NCBI GenBank assembly: GCA_020060235.1
Contig: JAGVAO010000067.1
Span: 1,257-65,256, forward strand
Length of the DNA: 64,000 bases
Direction: 5' to 3'
From: Anaerolineales bacterium
GTDB taxonomy: Bacteria; Chloroflexota; Anaerolineae; Anaerolineales; Villigracilaceae
Shown here: positions 29,821 to 64,000 of the stretch, piece after piece
How the letters are laid out: each line of letters starts with the position of its first letter
How positions within the stretch are numbered: the stretch's first letter is position 1
Notes under the pieces: generated by a model
What the model was told of the DNA's origin: nothing
The model's database searches: none
The model's input: only the letters and a program-made list of their open reading frames with translations
Position numbers and translations under genes: made by a program

Positions 29821-29897
29821 CTGCGTTTTTTCACAACCCTTTTTATGTTTTTTTGCGACTATTTTAGAAATATTCCCGCAACCCAAAGGAGATTGAA

Positions 29898-33580: not shown

Positions 33581-33760
33581 GCGCAGGATGACATTTGTAA
33601 CTTGAATTGACCCGCCGCCGGATGTAAAATAAAGAGAACATTGCAGATTAACAACTTGTCCAGTCCCAGCATTGGTTCGGCGGTCGCCCGGGGTCAAACC
33701 CGGCGGCGTGAGCGAGGCTCTCGAAAAGTGCCGCCGCCCGTCCCACAAGGAGCCGACCCT
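33581..33760 (+). promoter_or_regulatory. long GC-rich structured 5' leader, candidate cis-regulatory RNA
   Basis: About 180 nt lie between the terminator and the ATG at 33761. 'ggctct' (33716-33721) can pair with 'ggagcc' (33749-33754), which covers the AAGGAG RBS. 'ccgccg' (33731-33736) can pair alternatively with 'cggcgg' at 33678 or 33701. Confidence 0.25.
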
Positions 33761-34630: not shown

Positions 34631-34633
34631 CCC

Positions 34634-34687
34634 GGAGTCCAGCGTCTCCTGACGTTGGATATCGAAAATCGGGAGATTTTCGACTCC
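34634..34687 (+). repeat. palindromic element, family B copy 1 (intergenic)
   Basis: Hairpin 'tcgaaaatc'-ggga-'gattttcga' (34662-34683), with outer arms 'ggagtc' (34634) and 'gactcc' (34682-34687). Confidence 0.7.
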
Positions 34688-34701
34688 AAAAGGATTATCT
34701 C

Positions 34702-43600: not shown

Positions 43601-44395
43601 TTACGGCAATCCCTTAAATCCCTGTTCGCGCCAGGTGCTGAAACGCTGCCAGCCGATGTCCGAGAGCATCAGGGTCATACCAAAGCCAATTAGAACGCAG
43701 GTGATGAAGAAAAAGGCCACTTCTTCGATGGGCAGGATGCCGAAGAAGTTGATGCCCAGCGTCTGGTCTTTGGAGATGTTCCAGGTGGTGGCGCTCAGGG
43801 CGACGATGTCGGTTAGCGAGAGATACAGTCCGGGGATAAAGATGGACGTAAAAACCACTTTGCGGTAATGCCACAAAATATCTGCCCCGAACAGGAATTG
43901 GGGAATGATGGGTGGCAGCGCCCAGAAGAAGATGATGCCCAGGTAGTTCCACTCATCACCGGCGAAGAAAAATTGGAAGGTAAAGAAGACCCAGGCGGCA
44001 ATGAGTATTCCGGTTGACAAGTAAACCAGTTTTGGGCTGCGCTGGAAGGTTTCAGGAGCGGGCAGTCTCAGCCGCCGAGCCAGGAACCACCACCACAAAC
44101 CAACCAAGATGGTTTCGACGATAAAGAACGTGTATTCTTCAATCGGAACATAGCCAATCGTAATGCCGGTGACCAGGTCCGGGTTGTAGTACCAGACGCC
44201 GGTGGCGACCAGGTAGTTGTCCCAGGGGGTGGTGTAAACCAACGCGATGAGAACATGCACGGCGATAATTAGCGGCACTTTTTTTGCGTCGAAACCGGGA
44301 GTGGGGCGTCCGGCGCGCTTGTCCAGCCAGGTGATGACCAGCAGGACAAGAATCGGGATGATGACGAAGTAAGCGAGAAAGGCGAAGTAGGTCAT
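43601..44395 (-). CDS. lycopene cyclase, fused CrtYc/CrtYd-type (two lycopene-cyclase domains)
   Basis: A duplicated membrane domain, each half carrying the PxEE motif (VPIEEYTFF and LPIEEVAFF). Confidence 0.75.
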   Translation of the reverse strand: MTYFAFLAYFVIIPILVLLVITWLDKRAGRPTPGFDAKKVPLIIAVHVLIALVYTTPWDNYLVATGVWYYNPDLVTGITIGYVPIEEYTFFIVETILVGLWWWFLARRLRLPAPETFQRSPKLVYLSTGILIAAWVFFTFQFFFAGDEWNYLGIIFFWALPPIIPQFLFGADILWHYRKVVFTSIFIPGLYLSLTDIVALSATTWNISKDQTLGINFFGILPIEEVAFFFITCVLIGFGMTLMLSDIGWQRFSTWREQGFKGLP

Positions 44396-45744
44396 GAGGA
44401 TTTTAGATTGGATGATAGGCGGCGGGTAATTTTCATCAACACACCCGGGCGCGGTTCAAGGGTTGCGCCCATATGCGGGTGGATGTTTTCTGTCAAAAGT
44501 TGAAAATCGAAAGTCCTTAAAAGCTGGCTGACCACAATCCGCGCTTCGGCCTGGCCAAAGGCGGCCCCGATGCAGGCGCGCGGCCCGCCGCCGAAGGGGA
44601 TGAAGCTCATCGGGGGCGTTGCTTGCCTCGTGCTTTTTTGCGAGGTGCGGGCTTGCGAGAATCGTTCAGGCTGGAACTGGTCTGGGTTTTCCCAGATGGT
44701 CGGGTCACGCTGGGTCAGGTAAATCGAGTAGAACATGCGCGAACCGGCCGGGATGGTTTTACCCTCGCCAAAAGCCACATCCTGCGCCGCGATGCGGTTG
44801 CCGATGTGGATGGGCGGATATAGGCGCAAGGTTTCCTTGATGACCTGGTCGAGCAGGGGCGGGGTCTGGCCGGGTTCGCTCGCGTCCAGTTCGCGGACGA
44901 GGCGGGCGTGGATGTCCGGGTGCTGGCCGAGCAGGGCGAAAACCCAGGCCAGCAGCGCGGTGGAAGTGTCGTGCCCGGCAATCAGCATGGTCAGCATTTG
45001 GTCACGAATGATTTTGTCGGTCAGGTTGGCGTCGATGAGGTGTTGAAGCAAATCGTTATTCGGGGCTTCGGTATTCGATGAATCGGCGTCCGAATATCGA
45101 ACATCGAATATCGCTTTTCGCCGTTCTGCAATGATTTCATACAGGTAGTCATCGAGGGCTTTCAGGCGTTTTTTATAACCAGGGCGCGGGATGCGCCGCC
45201 ATAAAATCCATGCGCCGGGGGAGATGTAGTCGATGGCTTTCAAGATGGGCGTCCAGATGCGCGGGATGTCGTCCCAGGCATCGCGGCTGAAGAGGGCCTG
45301 GATGATAATCAGCAGGGCGATTTTGCGGCCTTCGACGAGCATATCCACTACCTGCCCATCCTGCCAGGTTGCGCTGACCCGTTTGGTTTGCTGGCGCATC
45401 ATTTCGGCGTAGCCGGGCAACTTGCCTGGGTGCAGCGACGGTTCCATGAGTTTGCGGTAATGGTCGTGTTCCTCTCCATCGGTGACGAGCACGCCGCGGT
45501 CGAGCAGGTCTGTGACCGGGTCGTTGTTGCGCCACTGGAACTTGTCACGCTCGGTGACGAGTACCTTGCGGGCGGCTTCGGGGCCAAAGACGATGTAGGG
45601 CTTGAATCCCGGCAGAGGCACCTGGAAGAAGCGCCCGACCCGCTCGGCCATAACGCGCAGCGGCCCGAGCGGGGGTTTTTCTGCGAGAAAGGATTTCAGG
45701 ACGGCGAGGCCGAGTTGGGGGTCGGAGGATGTGTCAGGTTTCAT
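44392..45744 (-). CDS. cytochrome P450, probable carotenoid-modifying monooxygenase by context
   Basis: I-helix [14 protein letters not shown] (ExxR) and heme loop [10 protein letters not shown]. The stop overlaps the lycopene cyclase start. Confidence 0.85.
45051..45113 (+). repeat. CGAAT-unit repeat block, family D copy 2 (in-frame inside the P450 gene)
   Basis: 'aatcgttattcgg...ggtattcgatgaatcggcgtccgaatatcgaacatcgaatatcg' encodes ...[20 protein letters not shown].... Confidence 0.5.
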
Positions 45745-45759
45745 GTGTCAGGTGTCAGG
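45731..45759 (+). repeat. TGTCAGG-repeat element, family A copy 2 (spans the GNAT stop and the P450 start)
   Basis: 'gtgtcaggtttcatgtgtcaggtgtcagg'. On the minus strand it supplies the TGA of the GNAT gene, the 10-nt spacer, and ATG AAA CCT GAC AC of the P450. Confidence 0.8.
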
Positions 45760-46276
45760 CGAGGGTTTTGGTCAGGTAAAGCACCAGGTCGTCATCGACG
45801 GGGATGGATTGGCCGTACTGAACGGGCTGGCCGCGCGAGAACAGTCCGCGCCCGTCGGGGATGTAACCGCGTTTGGCGTACATGCGCTGGGCCGAGCCGT
45901 AGTCGGCGGTCATGCCGACGCCCAGGCCAACCACTGCGCTTCGGGCGGCAACCCGTTTTTCGGCTTCGTCCATCAGGGACTCGCCGATGCCCTGGCGGCG
46001 GAATTTGGGCAGGACGTTGAAATCGACAATTTCAGGGATGTTTTGCTCGCGGAAAGGCGGGTAGTGCGACTGCCAGCAGATGGTGACGTAACCAGCGAAG
46101 TCCAAAATCGGGAGATTTTGGACTCCAGAATGAGCGACCAGGACGACCCGCTGGCCTGCTTCCTGCTCCGCGAGATATTTCTCATACTGCGAGGCGGGTT
46201 TATCCCAGCCCAGTTCAGAAAAAGCAGCAGCGATGGAGTTAATGTCGGTGGGTTCGATGAGGCGAATGGTAGGCAT
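45755..46276 (-). CDS. GNAT-family N-acetyltransferase
   Basis: 173 aa with the acetyl-CoA motif FRRQGIGESLMDEAEKRV. Confidence 0.8.
   Translation of the reverse strand: MPTIRLIEPTDINSIAAAFSELGWDKPASQYEKYLAEQEAGQRVVLVAHSGVQNLPILDFAGYVTICWQSHYPPFREQNIPEIVDFNVLPKFRRQGIGESLMDEAEKRVAARSAVVGLGVGMTADYGSAQRMYAKRGYIPDGRGLFSRGQPVQYGQSIPVDDDLVLYLTKTLA
46097..46126 (+). repeat. palindromic element, family B copy 2 (in-frame inside the GNAT gene)
   Basis: 'gaagtccaaaatc'-ggga-'gattttggactcc' pairs at 12 of 13 positions. It encodes GVQNLPILDF. Confidence 0.75.
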
Positions 46277-46295
46277 GTCTTTTAAGGGTTGAAGG

Positions 46296-47747
46296 TCATT
46301 CGGGTTTTTGGCTTGTGGCTTTTGATGAATTGTAGGCTTTCAGCGTTCGTTCCCGCGCCTCGGCGCGGTCAACGATGGGTTGGGCCGGGTAGCCAGGGAC
46401 GCGGATGCCCTTTTCCCAGCAGGGGGCGTGGATTTCGGGGGTGGAGAGATGGGCGAGTTCGGGAACCCATTTGCGGATGTAGGCGCCGTCCGGGTCGAAT
46501 TTGGCCGATTGCAGCACCGGGTTGAAGATACGGAAGTAGGGCGCGGCATCGGTTCCGGTTCCAGCTGTCCACTGCCAGCCGCCGTTGTTGGCGGCCGGGT
46601 CGCCGTCGAGCAGGTTGTCCATAAACCAACGTTCGCCCCATTGCCAGTTAATCAGCAAATCCTTGACGAGAAAGGAGGCGACAATCATGCGCGCCCGGTT
46701 GTGCATCCAGCCGGTTTCGCGCAGTTGGCGCATGGCTGCGTCCACGACCGGGACGCCGGTGCGGCCTTCCTTCCAGGCGGCAAAATCGGCTTCATCGTCC
46801 CGCCAGGGGATGTTTTGCAGGGCCGGGTTGAATGCGCGCCTGGCAACGTGCGGGAAGTGGTAGAGGATAGATATGTAGAATTCGCGCCAGATGAGTTCGT
46901 TCAACCATCTTTGCGAGCCTTTTTCGTTGAACGTGTTCAACGCGGTTTCAGCCGCCTGGCGCATGGAAACCATGCCGAAGCGGATATAGGGCGAGAGGGC
47001 GGAAGTGCCGTCGAGGTCGAGGCGGTTGCGGGTTTCGTGGTAACTGGTAATTGGTGATTGAGCAAATTGAGCTAGGCGGCGTTGGGCTTCGGCTTCACCG
47101 GGAGGAAAATGGTCAACGGATGACAGCGGATGCGCGGAGTTGTCAACGGATAGGAACGGATGCACGGATTTTGCCAGCGGATGAAGGGGCGGATACTTCG
47201 GCAGGCTCGGTGCAAGTTGCGCGGATATCTCAACGGATGGGGGCAGGTTGATGGGGGGGAAATGTTCCGGAGCTGGGAGCGGGTTTAGGCTCGATGGGAG
47301 CAGGGATTTCCAGGTTTTCGCAAAAGGCGTGAAAACGGTGTACGGCTTGCCGTCTGGTTTGCGAACGGCTTCCGGGTGATGAACGGTCTGCCCGTGGACA
47401 AGGGTCAGCGGTAGGGATTGAATCAGTTGTTCGTCGCGGGCGCGGGCGTAGGGGGTGTAATCTTGCTCGGCAAAAATGGCCTGCGCGCCAGTTTCGATGA
47501 GCAGGTTGAGCAATTCAATCTCCGGTTTGCCGCGTCGAATGACCAGAGAAGAGCCGCGTTTTTGCAATTCCTGGTCGAGTTCGTCCAGGCCGCCAAAGAG
47601 GAAGGCTTGCCGCCGGGCGGGAGTGCGTTCGAGCAGGTGCGGGTCGAGGATAAAGACGGGGACCACCGCTCCCTGCTTGAGAGCGGCGCGCAAGGCCGGG
47701 TTATCCGAAAGGCGAAGGTCGCGGCGAATCCACCACAGGGAGGTCAT
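46296..47747 (-). CDS. phr: deoxyribodipyrimidine photolyase (cryptochrome/photolyase family)
   Basis: LWWIRRDLRLSDNPAL, WREFY, GWMHNRARMIVASFL, and W..G..D-type FAD-domain motifs. Confidence 0.9.
   Translation of the reverse strand: MTSLWWIRRDLRLSDNPALRAALKQGAVVPVFILDPHLLERTPARRQAFLFGGLDELDQELQKRGSSLVIRRGKPEIELLNLLIETGAQAIFAEQDYTPYARARDEQLIQSLPLTLVHGQTVHHPEAVRKPDGKPYTVFTPFAKTWKSLLPSSLNPLPAPEHFPPINLPPSVEISAQLAPSLPKYPPLHPLAKSVHPFLSVDNSAHPLSSVDHFPPGEAEAQRRLAQFAQSPITSYHETRNRLDLDGTSALSPYIRFGMVSMRQAAETALNTFNEKGSQRWLNELIWREFYISILYHFPHVARRAFNPALQNIPWRDDEADFAAWKEGRTGVPVVDAAMRQLRETGWMHNRARMIVASFLVKDLLINWQWGERWFMDNLLDGDPAANNGGWQWTAGTGTDAAPYFRIFNPVLQSAKFDPDGAYIRKWVPELAHLSTPEIHAPCWEKGIRVPGYPAQPIVDRAEARERTLKAYNSSKATSQKPE
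47112..47243 (+). repeat. 'caacggatg / gcggatgcgcgga' repeat block, family C copy 1 (in-frame in the photolyase inter-domain linker)
   Basis: 'gtcaacggatgacagcggatgcgcggagttgtcaacggataggaacggatgcacgg...' encodes ...HPLAKSVHPFLSVDNSAHPLSSVDH. Confidence 0.8.
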
Positions 47748-47767
47748 ATCTAAAAAGAAACCTCCCT

Positions 47768-48343
47768 TTATTCCAGTAGTTCCGGCAGGGTCGGTTCTGC
47801 AACCTGTTCAGGAAAGAGTTTGTGCATCACTGTAATCACTTTGTAGGCAAAGTTGGGGTCGAAGGTGTAAAAGCCCTCATACATGCGTGGTTCGTTGGGC
47901 AGGCGGTTTTCGGCGTTGATTTCTTCAGCCAGCAGGGTCATGTGAATGCCCGGCCCGTAGGCAATGACAAACCAGTAATGTTCGAGCGGCGTGCCAGAAG
48001 TGTCGATGGCCTGGGTGCGGACGAAATCAGGCAGGGGTACGTCAGGCACGCCATACATCCACAAACTTGTGGAGGCCTGGGCGACCCCTACGTAACGCTC
48101 TTGCTGTGCGGCAACCCGCGAGAAATACTGGAAGGAAACGTGGGTTTCCGATGCGCCCGGGCTGGCAATAATGGCGTCCTCTATCATGTGGCTGATTTCT
48201 ATCATGCCGTTCACGGTGAAGATGTAGCGAAAATTGACCCGTTGCAGGTCTTCGCGCGTGGCGCTTTTCAGGAAAGCCTCGGTGCGCGGCGGAAACAGCG
48301 GCATCAGTTTGCCAAAAAAGTTGTGCAGAATATCTTTTTCCAT
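47768..48343 (-). CDS. stand-alone DICT-domain protein
   Basis: 191 aa collinear with the N-terminal domain of the neighbouring cyclase (...HVSFQYFSRVAAQQERY...WMYGVPD...HYWFVIAYGPGIHMTLLAEEI). Confidence 0.55.
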   Translation of the reverse strand: MEKDILHNFFGKLMPLFPPRTEAFLKSATREDLQRVNFRYIFTVNGMIEISHMIEDAIIASPGASETHVSFQYFSRVAAQQERYVGVAQASTSLWMYGVPDVPLPDFVRTQAIDTSGTPLEHYWFVIAYGPGIHMTLLAEEINAENRLPNEPRMYEGFYTFDPNFAYKVITVMHKLFPEQVAEPTLPELLE

Positions 48344-48348
48344 TTGTC

Positions 48349-49707
48349 TTACTCCTTGGTCGCTGGTATTGCCGGCGCTTTTGCGCGGCTTTCGTTTTCC
48401 CCGCCGATGAAGTCTTCAAGGGCTTCGAACTCGGCGCTGTACATTCGCTGGTAGCCTTTGCCTTTGACCTGCACGTCGCGGCCCAGGCAGCGGATGGGGC
48501 GGTTGAGGGCGCGGTAGGTGGCTTCATCAATACCCAGCCCATTGGACGGGGCCAGGGCCTGCAAGCGGCTGGCCATGTTGACCGCGTCGCCAATAATGGT
48601 GATTTCGCGGCGCGAAGCCGAGCCAAGGCGGGTAATGATGCACTCGCCGCTGGCAATGCCGATGCGGGTGTTGAACTGCAGGCCCAGGTGGGCGATTTGC
48701 TGATTATTGAAGCGCGACAGGCGGCGCTGCATTTCGGCGGCAGCGCTGACTGCATCGTTTGAACTGTTGAAGAATGCCATCAGGCCATCACCCAGGAATT
48801 TGTCGATGTCGCCATTGTGTTCGTAGATGACCGTCGTCAGCAGGTTGAAGTAACGATTGAGCGTTTTGGTCAATTCGAGCGAATCGCCGCGCTCGAAAAG
48901 CGGGGTAAAGTTTTCAATATCGGTAAACAGGATGGTCAGTTTACGGCGTTCCGGTTGGAAAGGCTCTTCAGGCGGGCTGTCGAGCATTTGCTGGCTGTCG
49001 TCCCAGGCGCGGCGTGAGACCATCGTGCGCACAATTTCTTCCATGCGCTCCAGCGCGTTGGTGCGTTCGGCCAGGTTGTTGTAAAGAGCCGATAACTGGC
49101 TTTGGGTGCGGTCCATATAACCGGCGAATTGGTTCAGGTAAGTGTTGACAGGTTGAACCGGGTCGAGCGGGGCGGGGACAAAAGGCGGTTCGGGCAGGCC
49201 AATCGCCTGGTGCAGCAAGCGCGCCGCAGGCTGGACGATGTGGTCTTCGAGCGTGACCATGCCCTGGTAGAGCCGTCCGCGCCCAAAGCGGCTTTCGCGC
49301 AACGAGGCAGCCGAGGCACCGATTTCACGCGTCAGTAAGGCGACGCCAAAGCGCGGGTGGGCAAAGACAATAAACCATTCCTGTGTCAAGGGCGCGTCAG
49401 GGGCCAGGGACACATATTCCAGGTTGGGAATTTCCGGCACGGCGCTGTCGGCTTTGCCAAAGATATAGACTTTTTTACAGCGTGCCGCCAACTGGCGAAA
49501 ACGGTTGGCCTGCGGCAGGAAGGCCGAAAAACGCTGGAATCCGGCGAAGAAAATCGAATCCATGCCATGCCGCAAGACGGTTTCTTCGATGCTGTGGCTG
49601 ACGGCCAGCAAAGACGCCACAGACGAGGTGCGCGCGGCGTTTGCCCCTGCGGCGGCCTGGGTGGCATTAAGTGTATAGAGCGAGATGGCCTGGATATCTG
49701 GTTTCAC
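48349..49707 (-). CDS. class III adenylate/guanylate cyclase with an N-terminal DICT sensory domain
   Basis: Cyclase core LTILFTDIENFTPLFE...KFLGDGLMAFF...IGIASGECI...IGDAVNMASRLQ. N-terminal DICT-like region FFAGFQRFSAFLPQANRF...EWFIVFAHPRFGVALLTREI. Confidence 0.85.
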   Translation of the reverse strand: MKPDIQAISLYTLNATQAAAGANAARTSSVASLLAVSHSIEETVLRHGMDSIFFAGFQRFSAFLPQANRFRQLAARCKKVYIFGKADSAVPEIPNLEYVSLAPDAPLTQEWFIVFAHPRFGVALLTREIGASAASLRESRFGRGRLYQGMVTLEDHIVQPAARLLHQAIGLPEPPFVPAPLDPVQPVNTYLNQFAGYMDRTQSQLSALYNNLAERTNALERMEEIVRTMVSRRAWDDSQQMLDSPPEEPFQPERRKLTILFTDIENFTPLFERGDSLELTKTLNRYFNLLTTVIYEHNGDIDKFLGDGLMAFFNSSNDAVSAAAEMQRRLSRFNNQQIAHLGLQFNTRIGIASGECIITRLGSASRREITIIGDAVNMASRLQALAPSNGLGIDEATYRALNRPIRCLGRDVQVKGKGYQRMYSAEFEALEDFIGGENESRAKAPAIPATKE

Positions 49708-49718
49708 GGGACAGGTTC

Positions 49719-50930
49719 TCAGGATGCTGCGGCCATTGATTTGGCGCGGATTTCAGCCGCAATCGGGTTGCCGTAGATGACGCGCCAGACATACACGCTC
49801 AAGGCAACCAATAGGATACCGCTGAACAGGCCGGGGGCCCAGGTTCCGAGGCTGCCGAGCAGGGCGCCGCCCAGGGTGGGGGCGATGACCCGCGTCAGGC
49901 TTTCGATGGAGGCTGAAAGCCCCAAAATCCCGCCGACTTCCTGGGTCTGGACGGCCTTGGTCAGGGTGCTGGCGAGGACGGTGTTCAGGATTCCGCCCGC
50001 GATGGCGGTCGGCGTCAGGATGACCATCAGCCAAAAGACCGAGGGGACAATTGCCCAACCCAGCAGGGCTGCGGCCATGATGACAATCGAGACGGCAATC
50101 AGCAGGTCTTCACGGAAGCGTTGGGTCAGGCGGCCAATTAAGAATCCCTGCACAAAGACCGAGAGAACGCCAACGTAGGTGAGAATAAATCCTGTATTGC
50201 GGGCGTCGAGCTGGAATTTTTTCAGGGCGTATAAGGCGAAAATAGTCTGAAAAATAGCAAAGGCCAGGCCAAAGAAGAAACGGGTTATCAGCAGCGAGCC
50301 GCTGAATGGACGTTTGAGCGCTGCGCCGAGGGCCGAAAAGGTGAAACCAGGGCGTTTTTCGGGCATCGCGGCGCGCTTTTCTTCGGACAGCGATTCGGGA
50401 AGCCAGGCGGCCACCAAAATCAGGTTGATGGCCGACAGCCCGGCGGCGGCAAAGGAGGGCACATCGTAGCCCCACTGACTCAAAAACCCGCCAGTGACAG
50501 GGCCGATGATAAATCCCAGGCCGAAGGCGGCCCCGACCAGCCCCAGGCCTTTGGAGCGATTCTTCTCGTCGGTTACATCGGCGATGTAGGCCTGGGCCAC
50601 GCTCAGGTTGCCGCCCATGAAGCCGGAGAGCATGCGGCTGGCGAAGAGCATCCACAGGGCGTTGGCAAAGCCGAGCAGGAGAAAGCCGAGGAATGCGCCA
50701 AAAATGCTGATGAGCAGCATCGGGCGGCGGCCATAGCGGTCGGAAAGCCGCCCCAGCATTGGCGCGCCGATGAGCTGCATGGCGGCGTAGGATGCCACCA
50801 GCAGGCCGGTGGTGAACTCGTCTGCGCCAAAGGTATCCGCATAATAGGGCAGCAGTGGCAGAATCAGGCTGAAGCCGAGCAAGTCAACGAAGACGACGAA
50901 GATGACAGAGAACAGGCGTTTTTTATCCAT
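49719..50930 (-). CDS. MFS transporter (TetA-like drug:H+ antiporter family)
   Basis: 12-TM profile with motif A GRLSDRYGRRPML. Confidence 0.85.
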   Translation of the reverse strand: MDKKRLFSVIFVVFVDLLGFSLILPLLPYYADTFGADEFTTGLLVASYAAMQLIGAPMLGRLSDRYGRRPMLLISIFGAFLGFLLLGFANALWMLFASRMLSGFMGGNLSVAQAYIADVTDEKNRSKGLGLVGAAFGLGFIIGPVTGGFLSQWGYDVPSFAAAGLSAINLILVAAWLPESLSEEKRAAMPEKRPGFTFSALGAALKRPFSGSLLITRFFFGLAFAIFQTIFALYALKKFQLDARNTGFILTYVGVLSVFVQGFLIGRLTQRFREDLLIAVSIVIMAAALLGWAIVPSVFWLMVILTPTAIAGGILNTVLASTLTKAVQTQEVGGILGLSASIESLTRVIAPTLGGALLGSLGTWAPGLFSGILLVALSVYVWRVIYGNPIAAEIRAKSMAAAS

Positions 50931-51405
50931 GAAGTTTTTCTTGATTGAATTCTCTTAAAACAGCCAGGATTTCATCGTTGGCGGGAATGTCAGATGCATC
51001 GTGTCCATAATGCACGAAGCGTACAATGCCCTGTTTGTCAATCGTCACCTGGGCGGGCATGCGCCCGAATTTGAAAATCTTGACTTGCTGACCGTACAGT
51101 TTTAAGACCGTATGTTCAGGGTCAGGCAGGCCGATGAAAGGCAGGTCGTGCTTTTGCCAGTATTCTGCAAAGGCTTTGGCGTCTTCGGGACCAAGCACCA
51201 GCACGACGGTGTCTTCGGCGATAAATTTTTCAGAGTCCTGGCGCAACTGCGCCAAATGCCGTTGGCAAAATGGTCAGAAAAGGCCGCGGTTGAAAACGAG
51301 CAGGACGTTGTTCCGGTCTTTGAAATCAGACAGGTTGATTTTCTGACCGTTGAAATCGGGCAGGCTGAAATCGGGCGCGGGTTGGTTGAGTTCTACGCGG
51401 CTCAT
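50923..51405 (-). CDS. peroxiredoxin-like (AhpC/TSA, PRX_like2) thiol oxidoreductase with in-frame TGA: probable selenoprotein (UxxC)
   Basis: ORFs 51274..51489 and 50923..51255 share one frame and are separated only by TGA 51274-51276. Read-through gives LVFNRGLF-U-PFCQRHLAQLRQD, which places Sec at the first Cys of the family's CxxC. A hairpin follows (see the next feature). Confidence 0.6.
51238..51255 (-). promoter_or_regulatory. candidate bacterial SECIS hairpin
   Basis: In the mRNA, 5'-UUGGCGC-AGUU-GCGCCAG-3' forms a 7-bp stem with a GU-containing tetraloop. The stem begins 18 nt after the UGA and the loop is about 25 nt from it. Confidence 0.45.
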
Positions 51406-51406
51406 C

Positions 51407-51733
51407 TCAGGCCCTGTTGCCCATGAAGAATTTTTGCGGATTGCCCTGGCTGGCGCGCAAGGCCAGGAAGGCGTACAGGCTGATGGCAAATGCGCCCAGA
51501 GTCATGACGGCGAGAATCCACAAGGCCGTTACCGGGATGGATTTTTCACGGTAGACAATCCAGGCCGAGAACAGGGTGAATCCGACGTACAGGTCCACAA
51601 GCGAGACGATTCCCCAGGGCAGGGAGGTAAGGATTGCGCCCTCGGCGGCGAAATCGCCCGCGATGAAGGCATAGCCGATGACGGCGGTCATCGCCAGCAC
51701 GCCCAAAATGGTGAGAATTTTTGCAACGTTCAT
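51407..51733 (-). CDS. small integral membrane protein (DUF1475-like)
   Basis: 108 aa with 3-4 TM helices and the motif LPWGIVSLVDLYVGFTLFSAWIVYRE. Its stop lies 1 nt before the next start codon. Confidence 0.55.
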   Translation of the reverse strand: MNVAKILTILGVLAMTAVIGYAFIAGDFAAEGAILTSLPWGIVSLVDLYVGFTLFSAWIVYREKSIPVTALWILAVMTLGAFAISLYAFLALRASQGNPQKFFMGNRA

Positions 51734-51742
51734 TGTGTATTC

Positions 51743-52579
51743 CTATTTCTTGCTGATACAGGCAAACCCCAGGGCGCCGACGCCAAGATGCGCGCCCAGC
51801 ACCGGGGTAATTTGCAGGACGGGTACATCGTTTCCCGGCCAATAAGCGCGGACGCTTTCGCGCAGGGCTTCGGCTTCTTCTTGAATCCCAGCGTGCAGGA
51901 TGGCGAGTTGCTCGAACGGCGCGTATTGTTCCAACCATTCCATCAGCAGGGCGGTGGCGTTTTTCTGGGTGCGCGTGCGATGAACAACCGGCTTGCCCTG
52001 GTTCATGTGCAGGACGGGTTTGATTTTGAGAAATTCGCCGATATGCGCTACGGCGGAGTGCATTCGTCCGCTGCGGCGCAGGTATTCGAGGGTTTTTAGC
52101 GAGGCAAAGACATAACTGCGCTCCATCTGCTCCTTGAGCGCGGATAAAATCTCTTCGATGGATTGACCGGCGGTCGCCAGTTGGGCGGCTTTTTCGACCA
52201 GGTAGCCCGTCCCCAGGCTGAGTTGCGTCGAATCCAGCACGGTCACCGGGATGCGGGCAAATTGTTGGGCGGCGATTCGCGCCTCGTTGACGGTGGCGCT
52301 CAGGCTCTCGGAGATGTGAATCGAGAGAATGGCCTTTGCCCCCTGGTCGGCCAGACGCTGGTAGAGTTGCTCAAAACCGCCCGGGCCGGGAGATGCCGTT
52401 TTCGGGAAGGGGTTCAGCACAGGCAACTGGCGGTAGAACTCCTCGCGGCTGATGTCGATGCCGTCCTTGTAGGCTTGCTCGCCGACGTGGATGTTAAGCG
52501 GCAGGACGGTGATACCCAGTTTGCGAACGGTCTCTTCGGGCAGGTCGCAGGTGCTGTCGGTAACGATGTGGATGCTCAT
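51743..52579 (-). CDS. DegV family fatty-acid-binding protein
   Basis: MSIHIVTDSTCDLPEE... with a DegV-type fold signature throughout. Confidence 0.85.
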   Translation of the reverse strand: MSIHIVTDSTCDLPEETVRKLGITVLPLNIHVGEQAYKDGIDISREEFYRQLPVLNPFPKTASPGPGGFEQLYQRLADQGAKAILSIHISESLSATVNEARIAAQQFARIPVTVLDSTQLSLGTGYLVEKAAQLATAGQSIEEILSALKEQMERSYVFASLKTLEYLRRSGRMHSAVAHIGEFLKIKPVLHMNQGKPVVHRTRTQKNATALLMEWLEQYAPFEQLAILHAGIQEEAEALRESVRAYWPGNDVPVLQITPVLGAHLGVGALGFACISKK

Positions 52580-52609
52580 GGGTGTCCCTCTCTTATATGG
52601 ATGGCAAAA

Positions 52610-53932
52610 TCAGGATGTGAATTTGCCAGCAGATGCCTGTTCAAGCCAGTTGCTTATCAGACGGCCATGTTCTGGCATGTGGTGTTCCACTGCGTCGGCG
52701 TAAACTTTCAGGTAGCCTGCGACAGCCTCGGGCGGGATGTGGTGAACTTTGATGAGCGTTTCGAGCCAATCCAACTCGGTGTCGATGAAGTTCAGGTCGC
52801 CCAACTGCAGGGCGGCGGCAATATTGTCGCCCAGGAAGATGTTGGCGCTGGCGAAATGTTCGGGTTTGATGCCGAAGGGCTGTAATCCCTCATTGACGCT
52901 ATTCTCTACCAGAGGGCGTTTAACGATAAACGCCTTCAGAGTTTCCAAATGTTTATTTGACGGCAACCCAGGCCGGGGGGCGTCTGCCCGCGTGACCAGC
53001 AGCGATTCGATACGTTCGATGCCGTCTTCCAGCGAGTCTCCCAGGTAATGACCGGGAATGCTTTCCTTTAAGCCCGGCTGGATGCTGAATATTCGTCCGC
53101 CGTAAACGACTGTTGCGCCGTGCGCCGAGAGCAGGCTGGCTGTTTGCTGAAGGTTGGCAGCGGTTCTGAGTTGCTGCGAAATTAGAACCACCAGGGTCGG
53201 TTGGATTGCCGTCAGGGTTTCCTCGAATCGGTCATGCGGCACGTTGGCACCCAGGTAAATTACATTCAATCCGCGGCGGCGCAAGAAGAGGGTCAGCAGC
53301 AGGCCGCCAAAGGTGTGCCACTCGTTTGGCGGACAGCCCACCAACAGGGTATGCGGACGGGTGGGGGTCGGCGCGGCGGCAATCAGGGCATCGAGGCGGC
53401 GCATGGCCAGTCCCGAAGCAAAGTGTTCCTGCTGCACGCTGGCGCGGTTTTCATACCAGAGCGTTCCAATTTCGGTCAGCCCGCGGGCCAGCAGTTCTGA
53501 GCAAACCACCTCGACCGGGTAAAGGCTAAAGGCCTGGTTGAGGGTTTGTTCGGCTGCGATTTCGTTGAAGTTCAGGCAGGCAGCCAGCCATTGCGAGCGC
53601 AGGGAATCGATGCCGGTTTCGGGCGGCAGGTATATGGCCTGCGGAATGCCGGGCGGGCGCACACCGGGCATGCTTTCGAGCGGGTCTTTGCCGTTGGCGC
53701 TTTGCTCGCGCCACATTTCGACAGCCCGTGAAATCGACAGCCCTTCGTTTTGGCGGGCCACGAGCCATTTAATCAGGGCAATGTCATGCTCCGAGTAAAG
53801 CCGGTGCCCGCCCGCTGTGCGCTGTGGCGACGGTATCCCGTAGCGGCGTTCCCAGGCGCGCAGGGTGTCGGCGTTCAGGCCGGTTTCTTTCAGCACCGCT
53901 TTCAGGTTGTAGACAGGGTTGGTATTTGGCAT
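52610..53932 (-). CDS. carH: MerR-family, B12-binding light-responsive regulator (CarH/LitR-like) with an extra C-terminal domain
   Basis: MerR HTH (YNLKAVLKETGLNADTLRAWERRYG), Wx9EH motif (LWYENRASVQQEHF), and B12 lower-ligand motif ExHxxG (NEWHTFG). About 135 additional C-terminal residues are of unknown family. Confidence 0.75.
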   Translation of the reverse strand: MPNTNPVYNLKAVLKETGLNADTLRAWERRYGIPSPQRTAGGHRLYSEHDIALIKWLVARQNEGLSISRAVEMWREQSANGKDPLESMPGVRPPGIPQAIYLPPETGIDSLRSQWLAACLNFNEIAAEQTLNQAFSLYPVEVVCSELLARGLTEIGTLWYENRASVQQEHFASGLAMRRLDALIAAAPTPTRPHTLLVGCPPNEWHTFGGLLLTLFLRRRGLNVIYLGANVPHDRFEETLTAIQPTLVVLISQQLRTAANLQQTASLLSAHGATVVYGGRIFSIQPGLKESIPGHYLGDSLEDGIERIESLLVTRADAPRPGLPSNKHLETLKAFIVKRPLVENSVNEGLQPFGIKPEHFASANIFLGDNIAAALQLGDLNFIDTELDWLETLIKVHHIPPEAVAGYLKVYADAVEHHMPEHGRLISNWLEQASAGKFTS

Positions 53933-54043
53933 GGCAGTAAGAACTTCTTTCCGAATTGGTTAGGCAGGCAACACGCGGTTTGCCGCAAGGCTGGCACTGC
54001 CGACTTGATGTTAATTAAAGCACGCAATGCTCAAATTGCCAAA

Positions 54044-55576
54044 TCAATCGCCAGCAGCCGGCGAAAGTTTCAGGTTGGCCACCTTGGCCGGGGGCATCTC
54101 TTTCAGGATGCGCTGGGCAGTCAGTTTGGCTGAGAGCAGCACAATCGGCAGGCCGGTGCCAGGGTGGGTCGAAGCCCCCGCAAAATACAGGTTTTTGAAC
54201 TGCGCGTGGCGGTTCTGCGGGCGCAGGAAACCAACCTGCCAGAAGTTGTGGCTCAGGCCAAATGCCGCGCCTTTTTCGAGATTGAACTGCTGTTTCCACT
54301 CTTTTGGTGTGTAGGCAATCTCGAATTTTATGTGCTCTTTCAGGTCGCTAATGCCCATTTCTTTTTCGAGCCGGGCAAAAACCGTTTCGCGGGCGCGGTT
54401 GACCATCGCGTCCCAATCTTGCTGGTTGCTTTCGTCCATGTGGCCAACCGGCACGAGCACATACAGGGTTTCCTGCCCTTCGGGGGCCGCCGCCGGGTCG
54501 GTGCGCGCCGGCGCGTGAACGTAAAACGAAGGCTGTTCGGGTAGGCTGTGGTCGTTGAAAATCTGGTCGAACGAAGCCTTGTAATCGCCGCCCAAAAACA
54601 CATTGTGGTGGGCTATCTCGGGGTAGGACTTGTCCACGCCCCAGTAGAACATAATCGTCGAGCAGGTGTACAACTTCTTGTCCAGTTTTTCCGCTTCGGC
54701 ATTTTTGGGCAGCAGTTCTTTGTAGATGTACGGCAGGTCGGCGTTGCCCACGAAAAGGTCGGCCTCGTAGCGCAGGCCGTCTTCCGTTTCGACGCTCTGG
54801 ACGCGACTCCCCTCAGCCTGGATAGCCTTTACCGGGGCATTGTACACAAACCGGACGCCCAGTTTTTCGGCCACCCCGGTCAAGGCTTCGATGCCCGCAT
54901 ACATCCCGCCGATTGGATACCAGACCCCCTCGGCCAGTTCGGTGTACTGGAGCAGGGAGTAGGTGGCCGGGGCGTCGTAGGGGCTGAGTCCCAGGTACAT
55001 ATTCTGGAAGGTGAACGCCGCCTTGAGCCTTTCATCCTTAAAGAAGCGGCTGGTGTTGCGATAGTGCTTGTCGAGCGCCTTGAGCTGGAAGATGAGCGGC
55101 AGGTTGCTCAGGCTGAAATACTCGAAGATGTTGTAGAAATTGCGCCCGACGAACTTCTCAACCGAAATCTTGTAATGCTTTGCGCCTTCTGCAATATAAC
55201 CCAGGAAACCCGTAAAAGCAGTTTTCTCCACTTTTTCGAGTTGCTTCTGCATTTTCCCAATGTCCGAAGTCAGTTCGATTTGCAGCCCGTCATCAAAGTG
55301 GACTTTGTACGTCGGGTCGATGCGCCGCAGGTCAAGGTGGTCGCTCATCTTCTCGCCCAGCGAGGCGAAAGTTTCCTCCCAAATTTCAGGCATCAGGAAC
55401 AGGGTCGGGCCAATGTCGAAGCGGTGACCGTCGCGGACGATTTGATTGCAGCGTCCGCCGGGTTTGTCATTCTTTTCGAGCACGGTGACATCGAATCCGT
55501 TTTTTGCCAGGCGGGCGGCGGTGGCAATTCCGCCGATGCCGGCGCCGATAACGATTGCGGCAGGTTTAGTAGACAC
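54044..55576 (-). CDS. crtI: phytoene desaturase
   Basis: FAD motif AAIVIGAGIGGIATAARLAKNGFDVTVLEKNDKPGGR and C-terminal FAGASTHPGTGLP. The GTG start at 55576 has AAGGAG 8 nt upstream. The track ORF extends to 55660. Confidence 0.9.
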   Translation of the reverse strand: MSTKPAAIVIGAGIGGIATAARLAKNGFDVTVLEKNDKPGGRCNQIVRDGHRFDIGPTLFLMPEIWEETFASLGEKMSDHLDLRRIDPTYKVHFDDGLQIELTSDIGKMQKQLEKVEKTAFTGFLGYIAEGAKHYKISVEKFVGRNFYNIFEYFSLSNLPLIFQLKALDKHYRNTSRFFKDERLKAAFTFQNMYLGLSPYDAPATYSLLQYTELAEGVWYPIGGMYAGIEALTGVAEKLGVRFVYNAPVKAIQAEGSRVQSVETEDGLRYEADLFVGNADLPYIYKELLPKNAEAEKLDKKLYTCSTIMFYWGVDKSYPEIAHHNVFLGGDYKASFDQIFNDHSLPEQPSFYVHAPARTDPAAAPEGQETLYVLVPVGHMDESNQQDWDAMVNRARETVFARLEKEMGISDLKEHIKFEIAYTPKEWKQQFNLEKGAAFGLSHNFWQVGFLRPQNRHAQFKNLYFAGASTHPGTGLPIVLLSAKLTAQRILKEMPPAKVANLKLSPAAGD

Positions 55577-55642
55577 GGGATGAACTCCTTGGTGAGAATT
55601 TACTTGGGTGAATGGTGGCGTTTTTTTGCTAACGATGCCCGT

Positions 55643-55670
55643 AGTATAACACTTGTCCATGTTTTGTCAA
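55643..55670 (-). promoter_or_regulatory. promoter of the crtI-led minus-strand array
   Basis: On the minus strand: TTGACA (55670-55665), a 16-nt spacer, then TATACT (55648-55643). Confidence 0.55.
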
Positions 55671-55716: not shown

Positions 55717-55761
55717 ACGGATATTCGACTATCCACTACGATAGAAGACAGGAGAGAAATC

Positions 55762-56709
55762 ATGCACGCACACTGGGAACGCAATCTGCTCAACCTGGCC
55801 GGGAACATCCCGCACCCGTCCACACGCCCCATTTTCTCGTACTGGGCTGGCGACGCCTCGCTCGAAGACGCTTACCAGCTCTGCGCCCGAATTGCCGCCG
55901 AACACTCGAAATCTTTTTATATGGCATCGGGCCTGTTGCCCGAAGAAAAGCGCTCTGCCGCCCGCGCGTTGTATGCCTTTTGTCGTGTTGTAGATGATAT
56001 TGTGGATGAAGGTTCTGTGGTGGGGCGGGAAGTCGAACTTGACTACTGGCGCGGCGTTGTGCAGGGGCTTATCCACCCTCGCGCCGACGACCTGGTAGCC
56101 CAGGCCTGGGCCGATACCCGCTCCCGTTATCATATTCCCCCGCGTTATGCCCTGCAACTGATTGACGGCGTTTCGCGCGACCTGACCCAGACCCGTTATA
56201 AAACCTTCGACGACCTGGCGACCTATTGTTATGGCGTTGCCTCGACCGTCGGGTTGATGAGCATGTATATTGTCGGCTTCAAATCCAACGAGGCGCTGCC
56301 GTATGCCATTAAGTTGGGCGTAGCCCTGCAAATGACCAACATCCTGCGCGATGTCGGCGAAGATTTCCGCAATGGCCGCATTTATCTGCCGAAAGATGAG
56401 TTGAAAGCCTTTGGCATCAGCGAAGCCGACCTGGCGCGCGGCATTGTCAACGACGCCTGGCGCAATTTCATGCGCTTCCAAATCGACCGCACGCGTAAAC
56501 TCTATGCCGAAGCCGAGAAGGGCATTGCCTTCCTCGAGCGCGACGGCCAGATGGCAATTGGGGCCTCGTCCAATTTTTATCAGGGCATCCTGGATGTCAT
56601 CGAGGCCAGCGATTACGATGTGTTTTCCAAACGTGCCAGTCTCACCGCCTGGGGCAAGGTTAGCCGCATCCCTGCGTTGTGGTTCAAACTTGCCACGCTG
56701 TCTCAATAG
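55762..56709 (+). CDS. crtB: phytoene synthase
   Basis: SKSFYMASGLLPEEKRSAARALYAFCRVVDDIVD, YCYGVASTVGLM and NILRDVGED. Confidence 0.9.
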   Translation: MHAHWERNLLNLAGNIPHPSTRPIFSYWAGDASLEDAYQLCARIAAEHSKSFYMASGLLPEEKRSAARALYAFCRVVDDIVDEGSVVGREVELDYWRGVVQGLIHPRADDLVAQAWADTRSRYHIPPRYALQLIDGVSRDLTQTRYKTFDDLATYCYGVASTVGLMSMYIVGFKSNEALPYAIKLGVALQMTNILRDVGEDFRNGRIYLPKDELKAFGISEADLARGIVNDAWRNFMRFQIDRTRKLYAEAEKGIAFLERDGQMAIGASSNFYQGILDVIEASDYDVFSKRASLTAWGKVSRIPALWFKLATLSQ

Positions 56710-56763
56710 TTCGAGTCTGCGTACAGGTGATTCTCCTTTGGGTGAAGGGTGCAAGCCCTTCAG

Positions 56764-56801
56764 CAAGCCCCCCGTCGGGCAACGGGGGGCTTGTCTTTTT
56801 T
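56764..56801 (+). terminator. rho-independent terminator after crtB
   Basis: 'aagcccccc'-gtcgggcaac-'ggggggctt' stem followed by GTCTTTTTT. Confidence 0.75.
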
Positions 56802-57537
56802 ATGTTTGCTGTGCCGGAGCTGGCTTTTTGAGCCAATCCTTGATAATAAAGGGCAGGTAAAGCAGCAGGAAAGTGACCAGCCCGATACCCTGCACGACCA
56901 GCAGGTACCAGGGCCATTCGGGCATGATGTCGAACAGGCTGGCGGTGTCGGGTTTGCGCAGAGTGTACAGGTAATTGCTGCCAATCAGCCAGTTGATGCC
57001 GGTCACAATTGCCATGTAAATATTGCCGCCGACAATGACCCGCAGAAGCGACTTCCAGGTCGGGCGAAAACCCTCGACGGTGGTCATGTAAATCGCGGCG
57101 GTCACAATCAATCCGTGCGAAATAAACGTTTGGAAAAAACGATAGTGGGGATAGCCGTAAATGCCCAGGTCGGGGGTGATAACGGCCTGCAACGCCCCGC
57201 CGATGCCTAAAAAGTACATGTATTCGTAAATGACGTAATTCCTTTTGACCAGCATCCAGCCGCCCAGCCAGACCAGGATACTGCAAACGTGAAACGGGAG
57301 CATGGTCTGGATGTTCCACTGGCCGACCGCGGCGTTCCACAAATGCCAGCCGATTTCATTGCCCCACAGCACCAGGGCCATCGCCAGGGCGGCCCTGGCG
57401 CGCGCTTCCGGGCTGGCTGCTCGAAACCGCAAAAGCAGAAAGTTGAGAATCAAGAGTACCGCCATGGCGGTCATGTGTTCGGGGCCGAGGAAGACAAATT
57501 CCGGGCCGATGAAGTCTTTGGCGAAGAAATTTTCCAT
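56800..57537 (-). CDS. TIGR02206 (YwaF-like) family integral membrane protein
   Basis: Protein of about 7 TM helices with the characteristic MLPFHVCSILVW and YPHYRFFQTFISHG motifs. Confidence 0.65.
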   Translation of the reverse strand: MENFFAKDFIGPEFVFLGPEHMTAMAVLLILNFLLLRFRAASPEARARAALAMALVLWGNEIGWHLWNAAVGQWNIQTMLPFHVCSILVWLGGWMLVKRNYVIYEYMYFLGIGGALQAVITPDLGIYGYPHYRFFQTFISHGLIVTAAIYMTTVEGFRPTWKSLLRVIVGGNIYMAIVTGINWLIGSNYLYTLRKPDTASLFDIMPEWPWYLLVVQGIGLVTFLLLYLPFIIKDWLKKPAPAQQT

Positions 57538-57577
57538 GCGCTATCCCTCCAATTTTTTATGGATAAATTATACCGTT

Positions 57578-58408
57578 TTATGCCCCCGCCAGCCGGCCCC
57601 ATTCTTCAATCGAGAGTGTTTCGGCGCGGCGCATTGGGTCGATGCCTGCCGCAGTGAGCAGGTTGGCCGCTTCAGGGGCCGGGATTGCCAGCCCGGCCGA
57701 CAGACTGTTGCGCAGGGTTTTACGTTTTTGCGAAAAACCGGCCTTTGCCAGCCGGAAGAAAGCCTCCAGCCTGCCCGGCGGGATGAGCGGCTCAGGGTAC
57801 AAATCGACGCGGATAACCGCCGAATCGACTTTGGGCGCGGGGTAAAAAGCCCCAGCCGGGATTTTCGCGGCGATGGATGGCTTGCCGTAAACCTGAACGC
57901 TGAGGGCCAGCAGGCTCATTTCACCGGGGGCGGCGCAAATTCGCTCGGCGACTTCTTTTTGAATGGTGAGCGCAATTCGGCGCGGGCGGGGTGCTTTGTC
58001 GAGCAGATGGCGGAAAACTGCCGAGGTGATGTAATAAGGAATATTGGCGGCCACCAGGTAGTCGCCGCCGGGCATCAGTTCGGCGGGCGCAAAGTTCAGG
58101 ATGTCGCCCTGGATGACGCGCACATTGCCAAAGGGTTTGAGTACCTCGCCCAAAACGGGAATCAGGCTCCCGTCCAGTTCGACCGCTGTCACCGACCGGG
58201 CGGAAAGGGCCAGGTGGCGGGTCAGGCTTCCCAGGCCGGGGCCGATTTCGAGCACATTATCATCCGCCGTAACCCCTGCGGCATGGACGATTTTTGCCAG
58301 CACCTCGTCATCTTGCAGGAAGTTTTGTCCCAGGCCTTTGCTGGCGTGAAGGCCGTGAGCGCGCAGCAGGGCCGGGATGTTGAGCGGCGGCAGGTTTTCT
58401 AGGGGCAT
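57578..58408 (-). CDS. rsmA: 16S rRNA (adenine1518/1519-N6)-dimethyltransferase
   Basis: KGLGQNFL, VLEIGPGLGSLT and NIPYYITS. I chose the start ATG at 58408 (MPLENLPPL...), which overlaps the upstream stop by 10 nt. Confidence 0.85.
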   Translation of the reverse strand: MPLENLPPLNIPALLRAHGLHASKGLGQNFLQDDEVLAKIVHAAGVTADDNVLEIGPGLGSLTRHLALSARSVTAVELDGSLIPVLGEVLKPFGNVRVIQGDILNFAPAELMPGGDYLVAANIPYYITSAVFRHLLDKAPRPRRIALTIQKEVAERICAAPGEMSLLALSVQVYGKPSIAAKIPAGAFYPAPKVDSAVIRVDLYPEPLIPPGRLEAFFRLAKAGFSQKRKTLRNSLSAGLAIPAPEAANLLTAAGIDPMRRAETLSIEEWGRLAGA

Positions 58409-63253: not shown

Positions 63254-64000
63254 TTATTCGACCGGGTAGTAGCACAACCCGGCGGTTCCCGGCCCGGTAT
63301 GGACAGCCAGGGCGGGTGAGAGTTCGGCGATGAAGGATTCGACGACTTCGACTTTTTCTTCGACCAGTTGGCGGATTTTTTGGGCTTCGTCCTGTGCCCC
63401 GGCGTGGACATAGGCGACTTTGGCGCGTCCCTGGCCGACAACATCGGAGACCATGTCGGCCATTTGCTGGTAAGCACCCAGGCGCGAGCGCGCTTGTCCG
63501 AGTGCAACGATGACGCCGTCTTTCATGCCGATGAGCGGTTTGATGTTGAGCAGGCCGCCGACCAGTCGTTTGGCGAGTCCGATGCGCCCGCCCATGTAGA
63601 GATATTTGAGCGTATCGGCGGTTTGCACCATGCGGGTGACGGGAATCATGGCGGCAACCTGGCTGCGGATGGATTCCAGGTTTGCCCCGTCAAGGGCGGC
63701 GCGGGCGGCTTCCAGGGCTATCCAGCCCTGGCAAAGGGAAACGTTTTGGGTATCGACGACCTCGATTTTGATTTCGGGGTTGCTATCTGCCAGCATGGAT
63801 TGGGCAACAGTGGCTGCCTGGTATGCCCCGCTGCCGCGCGAGGTCATGTGAACGCTGATGATTTCGCGAACTCCTTTTTCGACCAGGCTGCGGTACATCT
63901 CGAAGTAATCGCCGGGGCCGGGGCTGGCCGTTGTCGGCAGGCTGGTGGCGGTCGGCAGCCAGGAGATGAATTCGTCGCGCTTGATGGTGACCAGGTCGCG
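63254..64000 (-). CDS. DegV family protein (N-terminus lies outside the window)
   Basis: DegV-like sequence ...IISVHMTSRGSGAYQAA...YLYMGGRIG.... The reading frame stays open upstream of the track's start through to base 64000. Confidence 0.8.
   Translation of the reverse strand, partial: RDLVTIKRDEFISWLPTATSLPTTASPGPGDYFEMYRSLVEKGVREIISVHMTSRGSGAYQAATVAQSMLADSNPEIKIEVVDTQNVSLCQGWIALEAARAALDGANLESIRSQVAAMIPVTRMVQTADTLKYLYMGGRIGLAKRLVGGLLNIKPLIGMKDGVIVALGQARSRLGAYQQMADMVSDVVGQGRAKVAYVHAGAQDEAQKIRQLVEEKVEVVESFIAELSPALAVHTGPGTAGLCYYPVE

Follow-up and report, generated by a model that had tools for sequence, protein, structure and literature searches.

An in-frame TGA in a peroxiredoxin-like gene of an Anaerolineales contig very probably encodes selenocysteine and is followed by a conserved SECIS-like hairpin

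The DNA analyzed here, referred to as the window, is a stretch of 64,000 nucleotides (nt) from an Anaerolineales bacterium (GenBank assembly GCA_020060235.1, contig JAGVAO010000067.1, positions 1,257 to 65,256). Its minus strand carries a peroxiredoxin-like (Prx-like) gene between a DUF1475 membrane-protein gene on the 5' side and an MFS transporter gene on the 3' side (Table 1). From the ATG at 51405 to the TAA at 50923, the reading frame has a single interruption, a TGA at codon 44 (51276-51274). A list of open reading frames (ORFs) breaks the gene at this point into 51274..51489, which takes a TTG start inside the neighboring gene, and 50923..51255, which takes a TTG start at codon 51. An earlier interpretation, made from the letters of the window and called the sequence-only reading below, had held that the two pieces belong to one frame split only by this TGA. 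We reproduced both ORFs and the read-through translation, NVLLVFNRGLF-stop-PFCQRHLAQLRQD, so that the complete product reads MSRVELNQPAPDFSLPDFNGQKINLSDFKDRNNVLLVFNRGLF-U-PFCQRHLAQLRQD...KLHG (160 residues), where U stands for selenocysteine (Sec). We conclude that the locus very probably holds a single intact gene whose product has 160 residues, with Sec encoded by its internal TGA.

The gene is tightly packed against both of its neighbors, as had also been claimed. Its ATG lies 1 nt past the DUF1475 stop codon, and its end shares an 8-nt overlap with the start of the MFS gene, in which the stop of one gene and the start of the other read ATGGATAA.

Table 1. Features of the Prx-like gene and its surroundings (window coordinates)
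Feature	Position	Strand	Details
Prx-like gene, predicted selenoprotein, complete coding sequence	50923..51405	minus	160 codons including predicted Sec44; start ATG 51405-51403, stop TAA 50925-50923
In-frame TGA, codon 44, predicted Sec codon (U of UxxC)	51274..51276	minus	TGA in orthologs; TGC/TGT/Cys in homologs
TGC, Cys47, second residue of UxxC	51265..51267	minus	Peroxidatic-Cys column of peroxiredoxins (2ywn, AhpE alignment)
SECIS-like apical hairpin UUGGCGC-AGUU-GCGCCAG	51238..51255	minus	5' arm 51255-51249, loop 51248-51245, 3' arm 51244-51238
Possible lower stem UGC (51267-51265)/GCA (51259-51257)	51257..51267	minus	Alignment A3 columns 10-12 and 18-20; tentative
DUF1475 membrane-protein gene, 5' neighbor	51407..51733	minus	Stop TGA 51409-51407, 1 nt before the ATG of the Prx-like gene
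MFS transporter gene, 3' neighbor	49719..50930	minus	ATG 50930-50928; 8-nt overlap with the end of the Prx-like gene
DegV gene	51743..52579	minus	Directly upstream of the DUF1475/Prx-like pair; conserved there in 36 loci
MerR HTH (helix-turn-helix) + B12-binding regulator (CarH/LitR architecture)	52610..53932	minus	Upstream, co-directional; in 39 loci
CrtI-type (phytoene-desaturase-like) amine oxidase gene	54044..55660	minus	Upstream, co-directional; in 32 loci
DNA photolyase gene	46296..47747	minus	Downstream, co-directional; in 40 loci

To follow the TGA among relatives, we scanned species-representative genomes, 185,579 in all, obtained at least 591 relatives, and kept the best 80 loci, whose products share 61-85% amino-acid identity with the window gene. 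According to their record titles, these 80 loci come mostly from Chloroflexota/Anaerolineae, with some from Smithella/Syntrophaceae/Deltaproteobacteria and Actinomycetota and one from a Leptospirales bin. TGA occupies the identical codon in all 80 of these best loci, within the motif FNRGxx-TGA-PFC, and the same is true of a further locus, L085. An independent public assembly of the window locus itself (L001, a Logan contig) shows the TGA unchanged, with gene calls that are split in the same way. Two close relatives from metagenomes, which are rare cases, have TGC (L082/L083) or TGT (L084) at codon 44, and full-length homologs at 30-50% identity mostly have Cys in this column (CPFC, CPYC, CSHC, and similar motifs), as expected from the earlier claim that the TGA column equals the first Cys of a redox CxxC. 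In canonical peroxiredoxins, the column holds Thr or Ser. Almost all of the 84 close relatives that we aligned have the predicted Sec codon, and the clade thus appears to use Sec nearly exclusively.

The two sides of the TGA evolve as one protein. Conserved residues at codons 10-43 and 45-143 vary freely among synonymous codons in the 84-sequence alignment, and both halves are therefore translated in frame and under purifying selection. Cys47, the partner of the predicted Sec, is invariant, with a TGC codon in 82 of the 84 sequences. These observations bear directly on one rival explanation, in which the locus is a pseudogene that arose through a nonsense mutation, or a TGC or TGT was turned into TGA by an error of sequencing or assembly. 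Gene callers do split the locus into fragments of 43-44 and ~105-113 residues, and the TGA is one base away from the TGC and TGT of the Cys forms that exist. However, an error would have to be shared by the L001 assembly and 80 of 80 other genomes, all of which keep TGA at codon 44 and show no independent frameshifts or stops, and a decaying gene would sit poorly with purifying selection on both halves in one frame and with translational coupling that is intact toward both neighbors. Tight packing had already been named as an argument against a decaying pseudogene. We regard the pseudogene or error explanation as effectively refuted, with a negligible chance of being correct.

A different way of keeping both halves functional would be to make two products: an N-terminal peptide of 43 residues and a C-terminal protein of 110 residues whose translation restarts at codon 51, which might together form a split thioredoxin fold. 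Codon 51 is ATG in most orthologs and is the start chosen by annotation pipelines, but it is TTG in the window and CTG in L003. Codons 45-50 are conserved as protein (P-F-C-x-x-H, with the invariant Cys47) and show synonymous variation at Pro45 and His50; they are therefore translated in frame. Such a split would also leave the redox motif detached from the remainder of the fold. We consider the two-product arrangement very improbable.

A candidate signal for translation of the UGA as Sec lies just downstream. The sequence-only reading had pointed to a hairpin, UUGGCGC-AGUU-GCGCCAG, 18 nt after the UGA with its loop at about 25 nt, and this is where we find it: the hairpin begins 18 nt past the UGA, the AGUU loop begins past 25 nt, and the stem has 6-7 base pairs. 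The local 23-mer of the window hairpin folds at -11.6 kcal/mol, and the exact hairpin sequence occurs once in the window.

We tested the conservation of this hairpin by synonymous-codon entropy on the 84-sequence alignment. Entropy is zero (84/84) at only three codons of the gene: Ala52 (GCG), Gln53 (CAG), and Leu54 (UUG, one of six Leu codons). Next to them, Arg55 is limited to CGC or CGU, and codon 56 begins with C in every sequence, though the residue varies (Q, R, H, L); other invariant Leu, Ala, and Arg columns of the gene have four to six codons in use. The core at 51254-51240 (alignment columns 23-37) has 15 positions, of which 14 show no difference among the 84 sequences and the remaining one is C or U. 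The constrained bases coincide with the stem UGGCGC/GCG(C/U)CA and the loop AGUU. Where the stem does vary, pairing is preserved in 26 of 29 variant cells (15 G-C to G-U and 11 U-A to U-G), and it is broken in 3. The core of ~15 nt, UGGCGCAGUUGCGYC, is frozen across genomes labeled as several phyla. Judged by this alignment, the hairpin is under selection at the nucleotide or RNA level. The G at 51259, the third base of codon 49, is also invariant although this codon specifies different residues (R, K, Q, A, G, M), and a small lower stem, UGC/GCA, may tentatively be drawn below the apical hairpin.

From its conservation, form, and position, we infer that the hairpin is a bacterial selenocysteine insertion sequence (SECIS). 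Bacterial SECIS elements have been described as a stem-loop just past the UGA with a G in its small apical loop (PMC1088965), and the window has a stem of 6-7 base pairs with an AGUU loop 25 nt past the UGA. One comparison is with the fdhF-type SECIS of E. coli, whose conserved positions include G23 and U24 of the loop and which is bound by SelB at G23 and the bulged U17 (PMC8659212). Like that element, the window hairpin lies within the coding sequence just past the UGA and has a small apical loop with G-U, and by analogy SelB recognition would be expected here (PMC8659212; PMC1088965). The spacing differs, as the fdhF stem starts 11 nt past the UGA, versus 18-19 nt here. Rfam, searched at gathering thresholds over the whole window, returned no match, including at the hairpin.

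Several results weigh against the proposal that this hairpin directs Sec insertion at UGA44. The bulged U of the fdhF SECIS is not evident in the window. The folding energy of the 68-nt region is no better than that of shuffled sequences (z = -0.43); a single sequence alone is therefore no proof of the hairpin, and we did not use it as evidence. A covariation test on the 84-sequence alignment found no compensatory changes, with observed values equal to shuffled ones. Because the stem is almost invariant, this shuffle control is uninformative, and we used the synonymous-site constraint instead. The close Cys forms L082-L084, which could have served as a control without a SECIS, failed as such by retaining an intact hairpin, and the hairpin alone is therefore no proof of Sec insertion. 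Finally, neither the 64-kb window nor ~1 Mb of orthologous flanks contains selA, selB, selD, or a tRNA gene for Sec (tRNA-Sec).

The retention of the hairpin in L082-L084 presumably fits recent changes from Sec to Cys. Of two distant Cys homologs, one is without the hairpin at the corresponding site (-0.5 kcal/mol), and what the other retains of it is a degenerate remnant of 4 bp (-6.3 kcal/mol). As a side observation, L082-L084, with an intact hairpin, and L090, with a decayed one, look like recent and older Sec-to-Cys conversions that carry a "fossil" SECIS. The L082 gene adjoins a reverse transcriptase, a DsbA-like gene, and a C_GCAxxG_C_C gene.

The negative result for the Sec machinery comes from several searches. 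No tRNA-Sec was detected by a tRNA scan of the window and 60 orthologous loci; Pfam annotation of all 52 predicted window genes yielded no SelA, SelB, or SelD; and tblastn with the E. coli SelA, SelB, and SelD proteins against the window and the ~1 Mb of orthologous flanks gave a single weak GTPase match only. A scan of TGA-split ORF pairs found no other credible selenoprotein gene in the window outside known genes, and a paper on digester selenoproteomes yielded no metaproteomic evidence for the protein. At the level of the lineage, the published record is positive. Single-cell genomes of Anaerolineales reportedly encode SelB, as does Anaerolinea thermophila UNI-1, in which no dehydrogenases are annotated as Sec-containing (PMC4959059). 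Chloroflexi are reported to have a tRNA-Sec of 8/4 structure (PMC5389517), and selenoproteins of Chloroflexi have been listed (PMC1794560). The Sec trait thus exists in the lineage according to this literature, and one of our loci that carries the TGA gene, L011, is a metagenome-assembled genome labeled A. thermophila.

With these results in hand, we can weigh the last rival explanation, in which UGA44 is read through without Sec. This could happen under a reassigned code (Trp or Gly, codes 4/25), or through a near-cognate or Cys-charged tRNA whose use is stimulated by the hairpin (inserting W, C, or R). Cys insertion at Sec codons under selenium limitation is known in other systems. The absence of Sec machinery from the window and orthologous flanks would fit such a scenario, as would public gene calls that give W at the site and the homolog P0097, which has R there. 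Yet TGA is the terminator of 15 of the 52 predicted window genes; it is thus an ordinary stop and the code is standard, not reassigned. The single W call that we checked is a TGA on a short contig, not a TGG. Furthermore, homologs have the redox-active first Cys of CxxC at this position, where Trp would abolish activity, and in form the hairpin matches a SelB-type SECIS. Read-through without Sec therefore appears very unlikely, though it is the least remote of the three rivals. A reassigned code, a pseudogene, and a split two-protein gene were each weighed and rejected. Taking the codon, the hairpin, and the Cys homologs together, we are highly confident in the prediction that the gene encodes Sec at codon 44. 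Every proposed check that was run supports the sequence-only reading.

The family to which the product belongs was examined with Cys in place of the stop. This product matches the Pfam family AhpC-TSA (PF00578) over its full length (4e-22, 78.8 bits against a cut-off of 26), and Redoxin as well (7e-19). Among NCBIfam models, NF040769 (SelL-related redox protein) scores highest (2.8e-22), with 79.2 bits at profile positions 1-99 of 173. This lies below the curated cut-off of 120 bits, and the read-through product is therefore not a member by the NCBI criterion, even though it shares with the SelL/SelL-related proteins (PRX_like2 group) a Prx fold and a CxxC/UxxC/UxxU motif instead of TxxC. The BCP, PrxQ, ResA, and PrxU models all score far below the NF040769 match. 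The BCP equivalog model gives 46 bits, with a cut-off of 140, the PrxQ equivalog model 41 bits, with a cut-off of 260, and the PrxU model NF040737 gives 18.8 bits where at least 270 are required.

By sequence, the nearest solved structures are Sulfolobus Bcp1 (3drn, E 6e-14), AhpE, and ResA. The fold was compared through the AlphaFold model of a relative that naturally has the Cys form, not through one of the Sec form. This model has a pLDDT of 93.5 and a Bcp/AhpE/ResA-like fold; Foldseek places it at a TM of 0.82 to Bcp1, with AhpE and ResA also close. Residue 44 directly precedes the long helix 45-56, and in this model it occupies the classic site for the first Cys of a thioredoxin-fold CxxC.

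The comparison with the BCP/PrxQ/AhpE peroxiredoxins shows how the protein departs from them. Cys47 falls in their peroxidatic column, and in the alignment the invariant Arg115 stands beside Arg116, the catalytic Arg of AhpE. In contrast, their PxxxTxxC signature is not kept: the TGA column is that of its Thr, and Arg40 replaces its Pro. Because of these two replacements, the protein is not a canonical peroxiredoxin; as far as the alignments go, it is a Prx fold with a UxxC center of the thiol-oxidoreductase type. It also differs from PrxU (TxxU), whose Sec is the peroxidatic residue, since the predicted Sec of the window protein lies three residues upstream of that column. The clade has its own signature, FNRGxxUPFCxxHMAQLRxD ... 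RFVHYGHxxxDIPxN.

Selenoproteins of this general kind are already known, and the window gene very probably adds a further member. Prx-like thiol:disulfide oxidoreductase selenoproteins with UxxC or UxxU motifs belong to pfam00578 (PMC1794560; PMC2398784; PMC9312934; PMC13188914). They have been predicted since 2004 in Geobacter, Syntrophus, and Desulfotalea, and the "Prx-like 1" of ocean metagenomes belongs to them too. The window protein has the same PF00578 domain, predicted Sec in place of the first Cys of CxxC (U44-P-F-C47 at the CxxC redox position), and abundant Cys homologs, and the function of the known family is likewise uncharacterized. Compared by description, the gene thus agrees with the Prx-like UxxC family, whose published reference members include WP_010940744.1. 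What sets the window clade apart from other members is its own signature, its near-constant Sec, and, in Anaerolineae, a light-response gene cluster described below.

Conserved recoding signals and a UxxC center at the helix N-terminus of a Prx fold are what the alignments and the Cys-form model show, and they allow us to propose how the gene would work. The hairpin 18-35 nt past the UGA, with stem UGGCGC/GCGCCA and tetraloop AGUU, would recruit SelB-GTP with Sec-tRNA(Sec). This complex would outcompete release factor 2, and UGA44 would be decoded as Sec. The product would then carry a U44-P-F-C47 redox center at the N-terminus of its first long helix. The exposed selenolate of Sec44 could attack an oxidized substrate (a disulfide, sulfenic acid, or hydroperoxide), Cys47 would resolve the adduct by forming a selenenylsulfide with Sec44, and a thioredoxin-type reductant would recycle the center. 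The invariant Arg115 may act as the catalytic Arg of peroxiredoxins does. In Anaerolineae-type genomes, the Sec protein would serve a response to light and photo-oxidative stress.

Public databases currently obscure this family. The close database relatives (72-98% identity) are all fragments of 105-117 residues that start just past the TGA, and most of the apparently full-length relatives (55-68% identity) have W at the Sec site. For one W-type entry, P0001, we fetched the DNA: the codon is TGA, and the locus translated with the standard code does not yield the deposited protein. The W in P0001 likely came from a gene caller applying code 4 (TGA = Trp) to a short contig. Other instances of Trp at the Sec site are the public proteins P0004, P0006, P0010, and similar entries, and L085, an ENA contig, was noted with them. 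The Arg of P0097 (FTRPFC) at the Sec column could come from a codon that a single mutation separates from TGA (CGA or AGA), or from an oddity of the annotation.

This gene and hundreds of orthologs are stored wrongly, either as truncated "peroxiredoxin Q/BCP" fragments of 105-117 residues or at full length with a spurious Trp, and the W-type calls hide selenoproteins in the protein databases. Since no NCBIfam model reaches its cut-off for this clade, automatic pipelines will probably keep splitting the gene. The SECIS core and the FNRGxxUPFC motif together offer a simple signature for recovering the family.

The surroundings of the gene suggest what it may be for. All on the minus strand, the window order is CrtI-like, MerR-B12, DegV, DUF1475, the Prx-like gene, and MFS, followed by the photolyase side: two DICT-domain genes, photolyase, a GNAT acetyltransferase, a cytochrome P450, and a lycopene-cyclase-like gene. 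One of the DICT-domain proteins is fused to an adenylate/guanylate cyclase. This co-directional cluster spans 43601-55660 of the window, and its core recurs in the same orientation in ~40 orthologous loci from Anaerolineae-type genomes. The DUF1475 gene is kept as upstream neighbor in 37 loci and the MFS gene as neighbor in 33, while the photolyase gene lies immediately 3' of the Prx-like gene in L034, L060, L065, and L081. In L088, a locus of a 4.44-Mb genome (GCA_041301925.1), the cluster also comes with phytoene synthase, P450, and lycopene cyclase.

In non-phototrophic bacteria, light-induced carotenogenesis is governed by regulators that combine MerR and B12-binding domains, the CarH/LitR family (PMC6739363; PMC11519972), and by analogy the cluster would be a typical light response of a non-phototroph. 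Because of this precedent and the conservation of the cluster, we propose for the gene a role in the response to light and photo-oxidative stress. Its physiological role in Anaerolineae-type genomes would most likely be the defense against or repair of photo-oxidative damage. We found no description of a light-response cluster around a Prx-like selenoprotein gene in the papers that we searched.

Two considerations count against the light link. Loci labeled Deltaproteobacteria, Smithella/Syntrophaceae, or Actinomycetota have almost none of this neighborhood, and the link is therefore limited to Anaerolineae-type genomes. In addition, homology and gene neighborhood are the entire basis for both the enzymatic function and the connection to light. 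The combined claim, that these proteins form a distinct, nearly always Sec-containing Prx-like subfamily and that in non-phototrophic Anaerolineae the gene is a component of a B12/CarH photoprotection regulon, is one we put forward tentatively, as a possibility that we judge less likely than not. On the regulon reading, carotenoid synthesis, photolyase, the MFS exporter, DegV, and DUF1475 would be included as well.

If the claim is true, the gene would encode a light-induced selenoenzyme that repairs photo-oxidative damage, and it would be a so far unannotated client for the SelB-bearing Sec machinery of A. thermophila UNI-1. The conserved neighborhood gives a functional hypothesis, light-induced oxidative stress, to a selenoprotein family that has been without one since 2004. 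The predicted selenoprotein would also extend selenium dependence to Anaerolineae, an abundant group of digesters, sediments, and mats.

A few minor observations concern the rest of the window. The window contains two genes of the DegV family, whose members bind fatty acids (51743-52579 and 63254-63898, both on the minus strand), and the position of the first beside the DUF1475/Prx-like pair hints at a lipid-related role of the operon. Four ORFs of 345-683 residues have no Pfam match at E <= 0.001: 29859-31616 (minus), 55729-56766 (minus), 57302-58402 (plus), and 61199-63250 (minus). On the plus strand, 33641-37557 encodes a molybdoenzyme of the xanthine dehydrogenase family, with a FAD-binding subunit and a fused 2Fe-2S/MoCo subunit; some members of that family use a selenium cofactor. 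Also on the plus strand, 10121-17566 encodes a sensor histidine kinase of 2481 residues with at least 10 GAF domains, PAS, and HisKA/HATPase, which may be a multi-input or light sensor and is flanked by response-regulator genes at 9209-10114 and 17569-17943.

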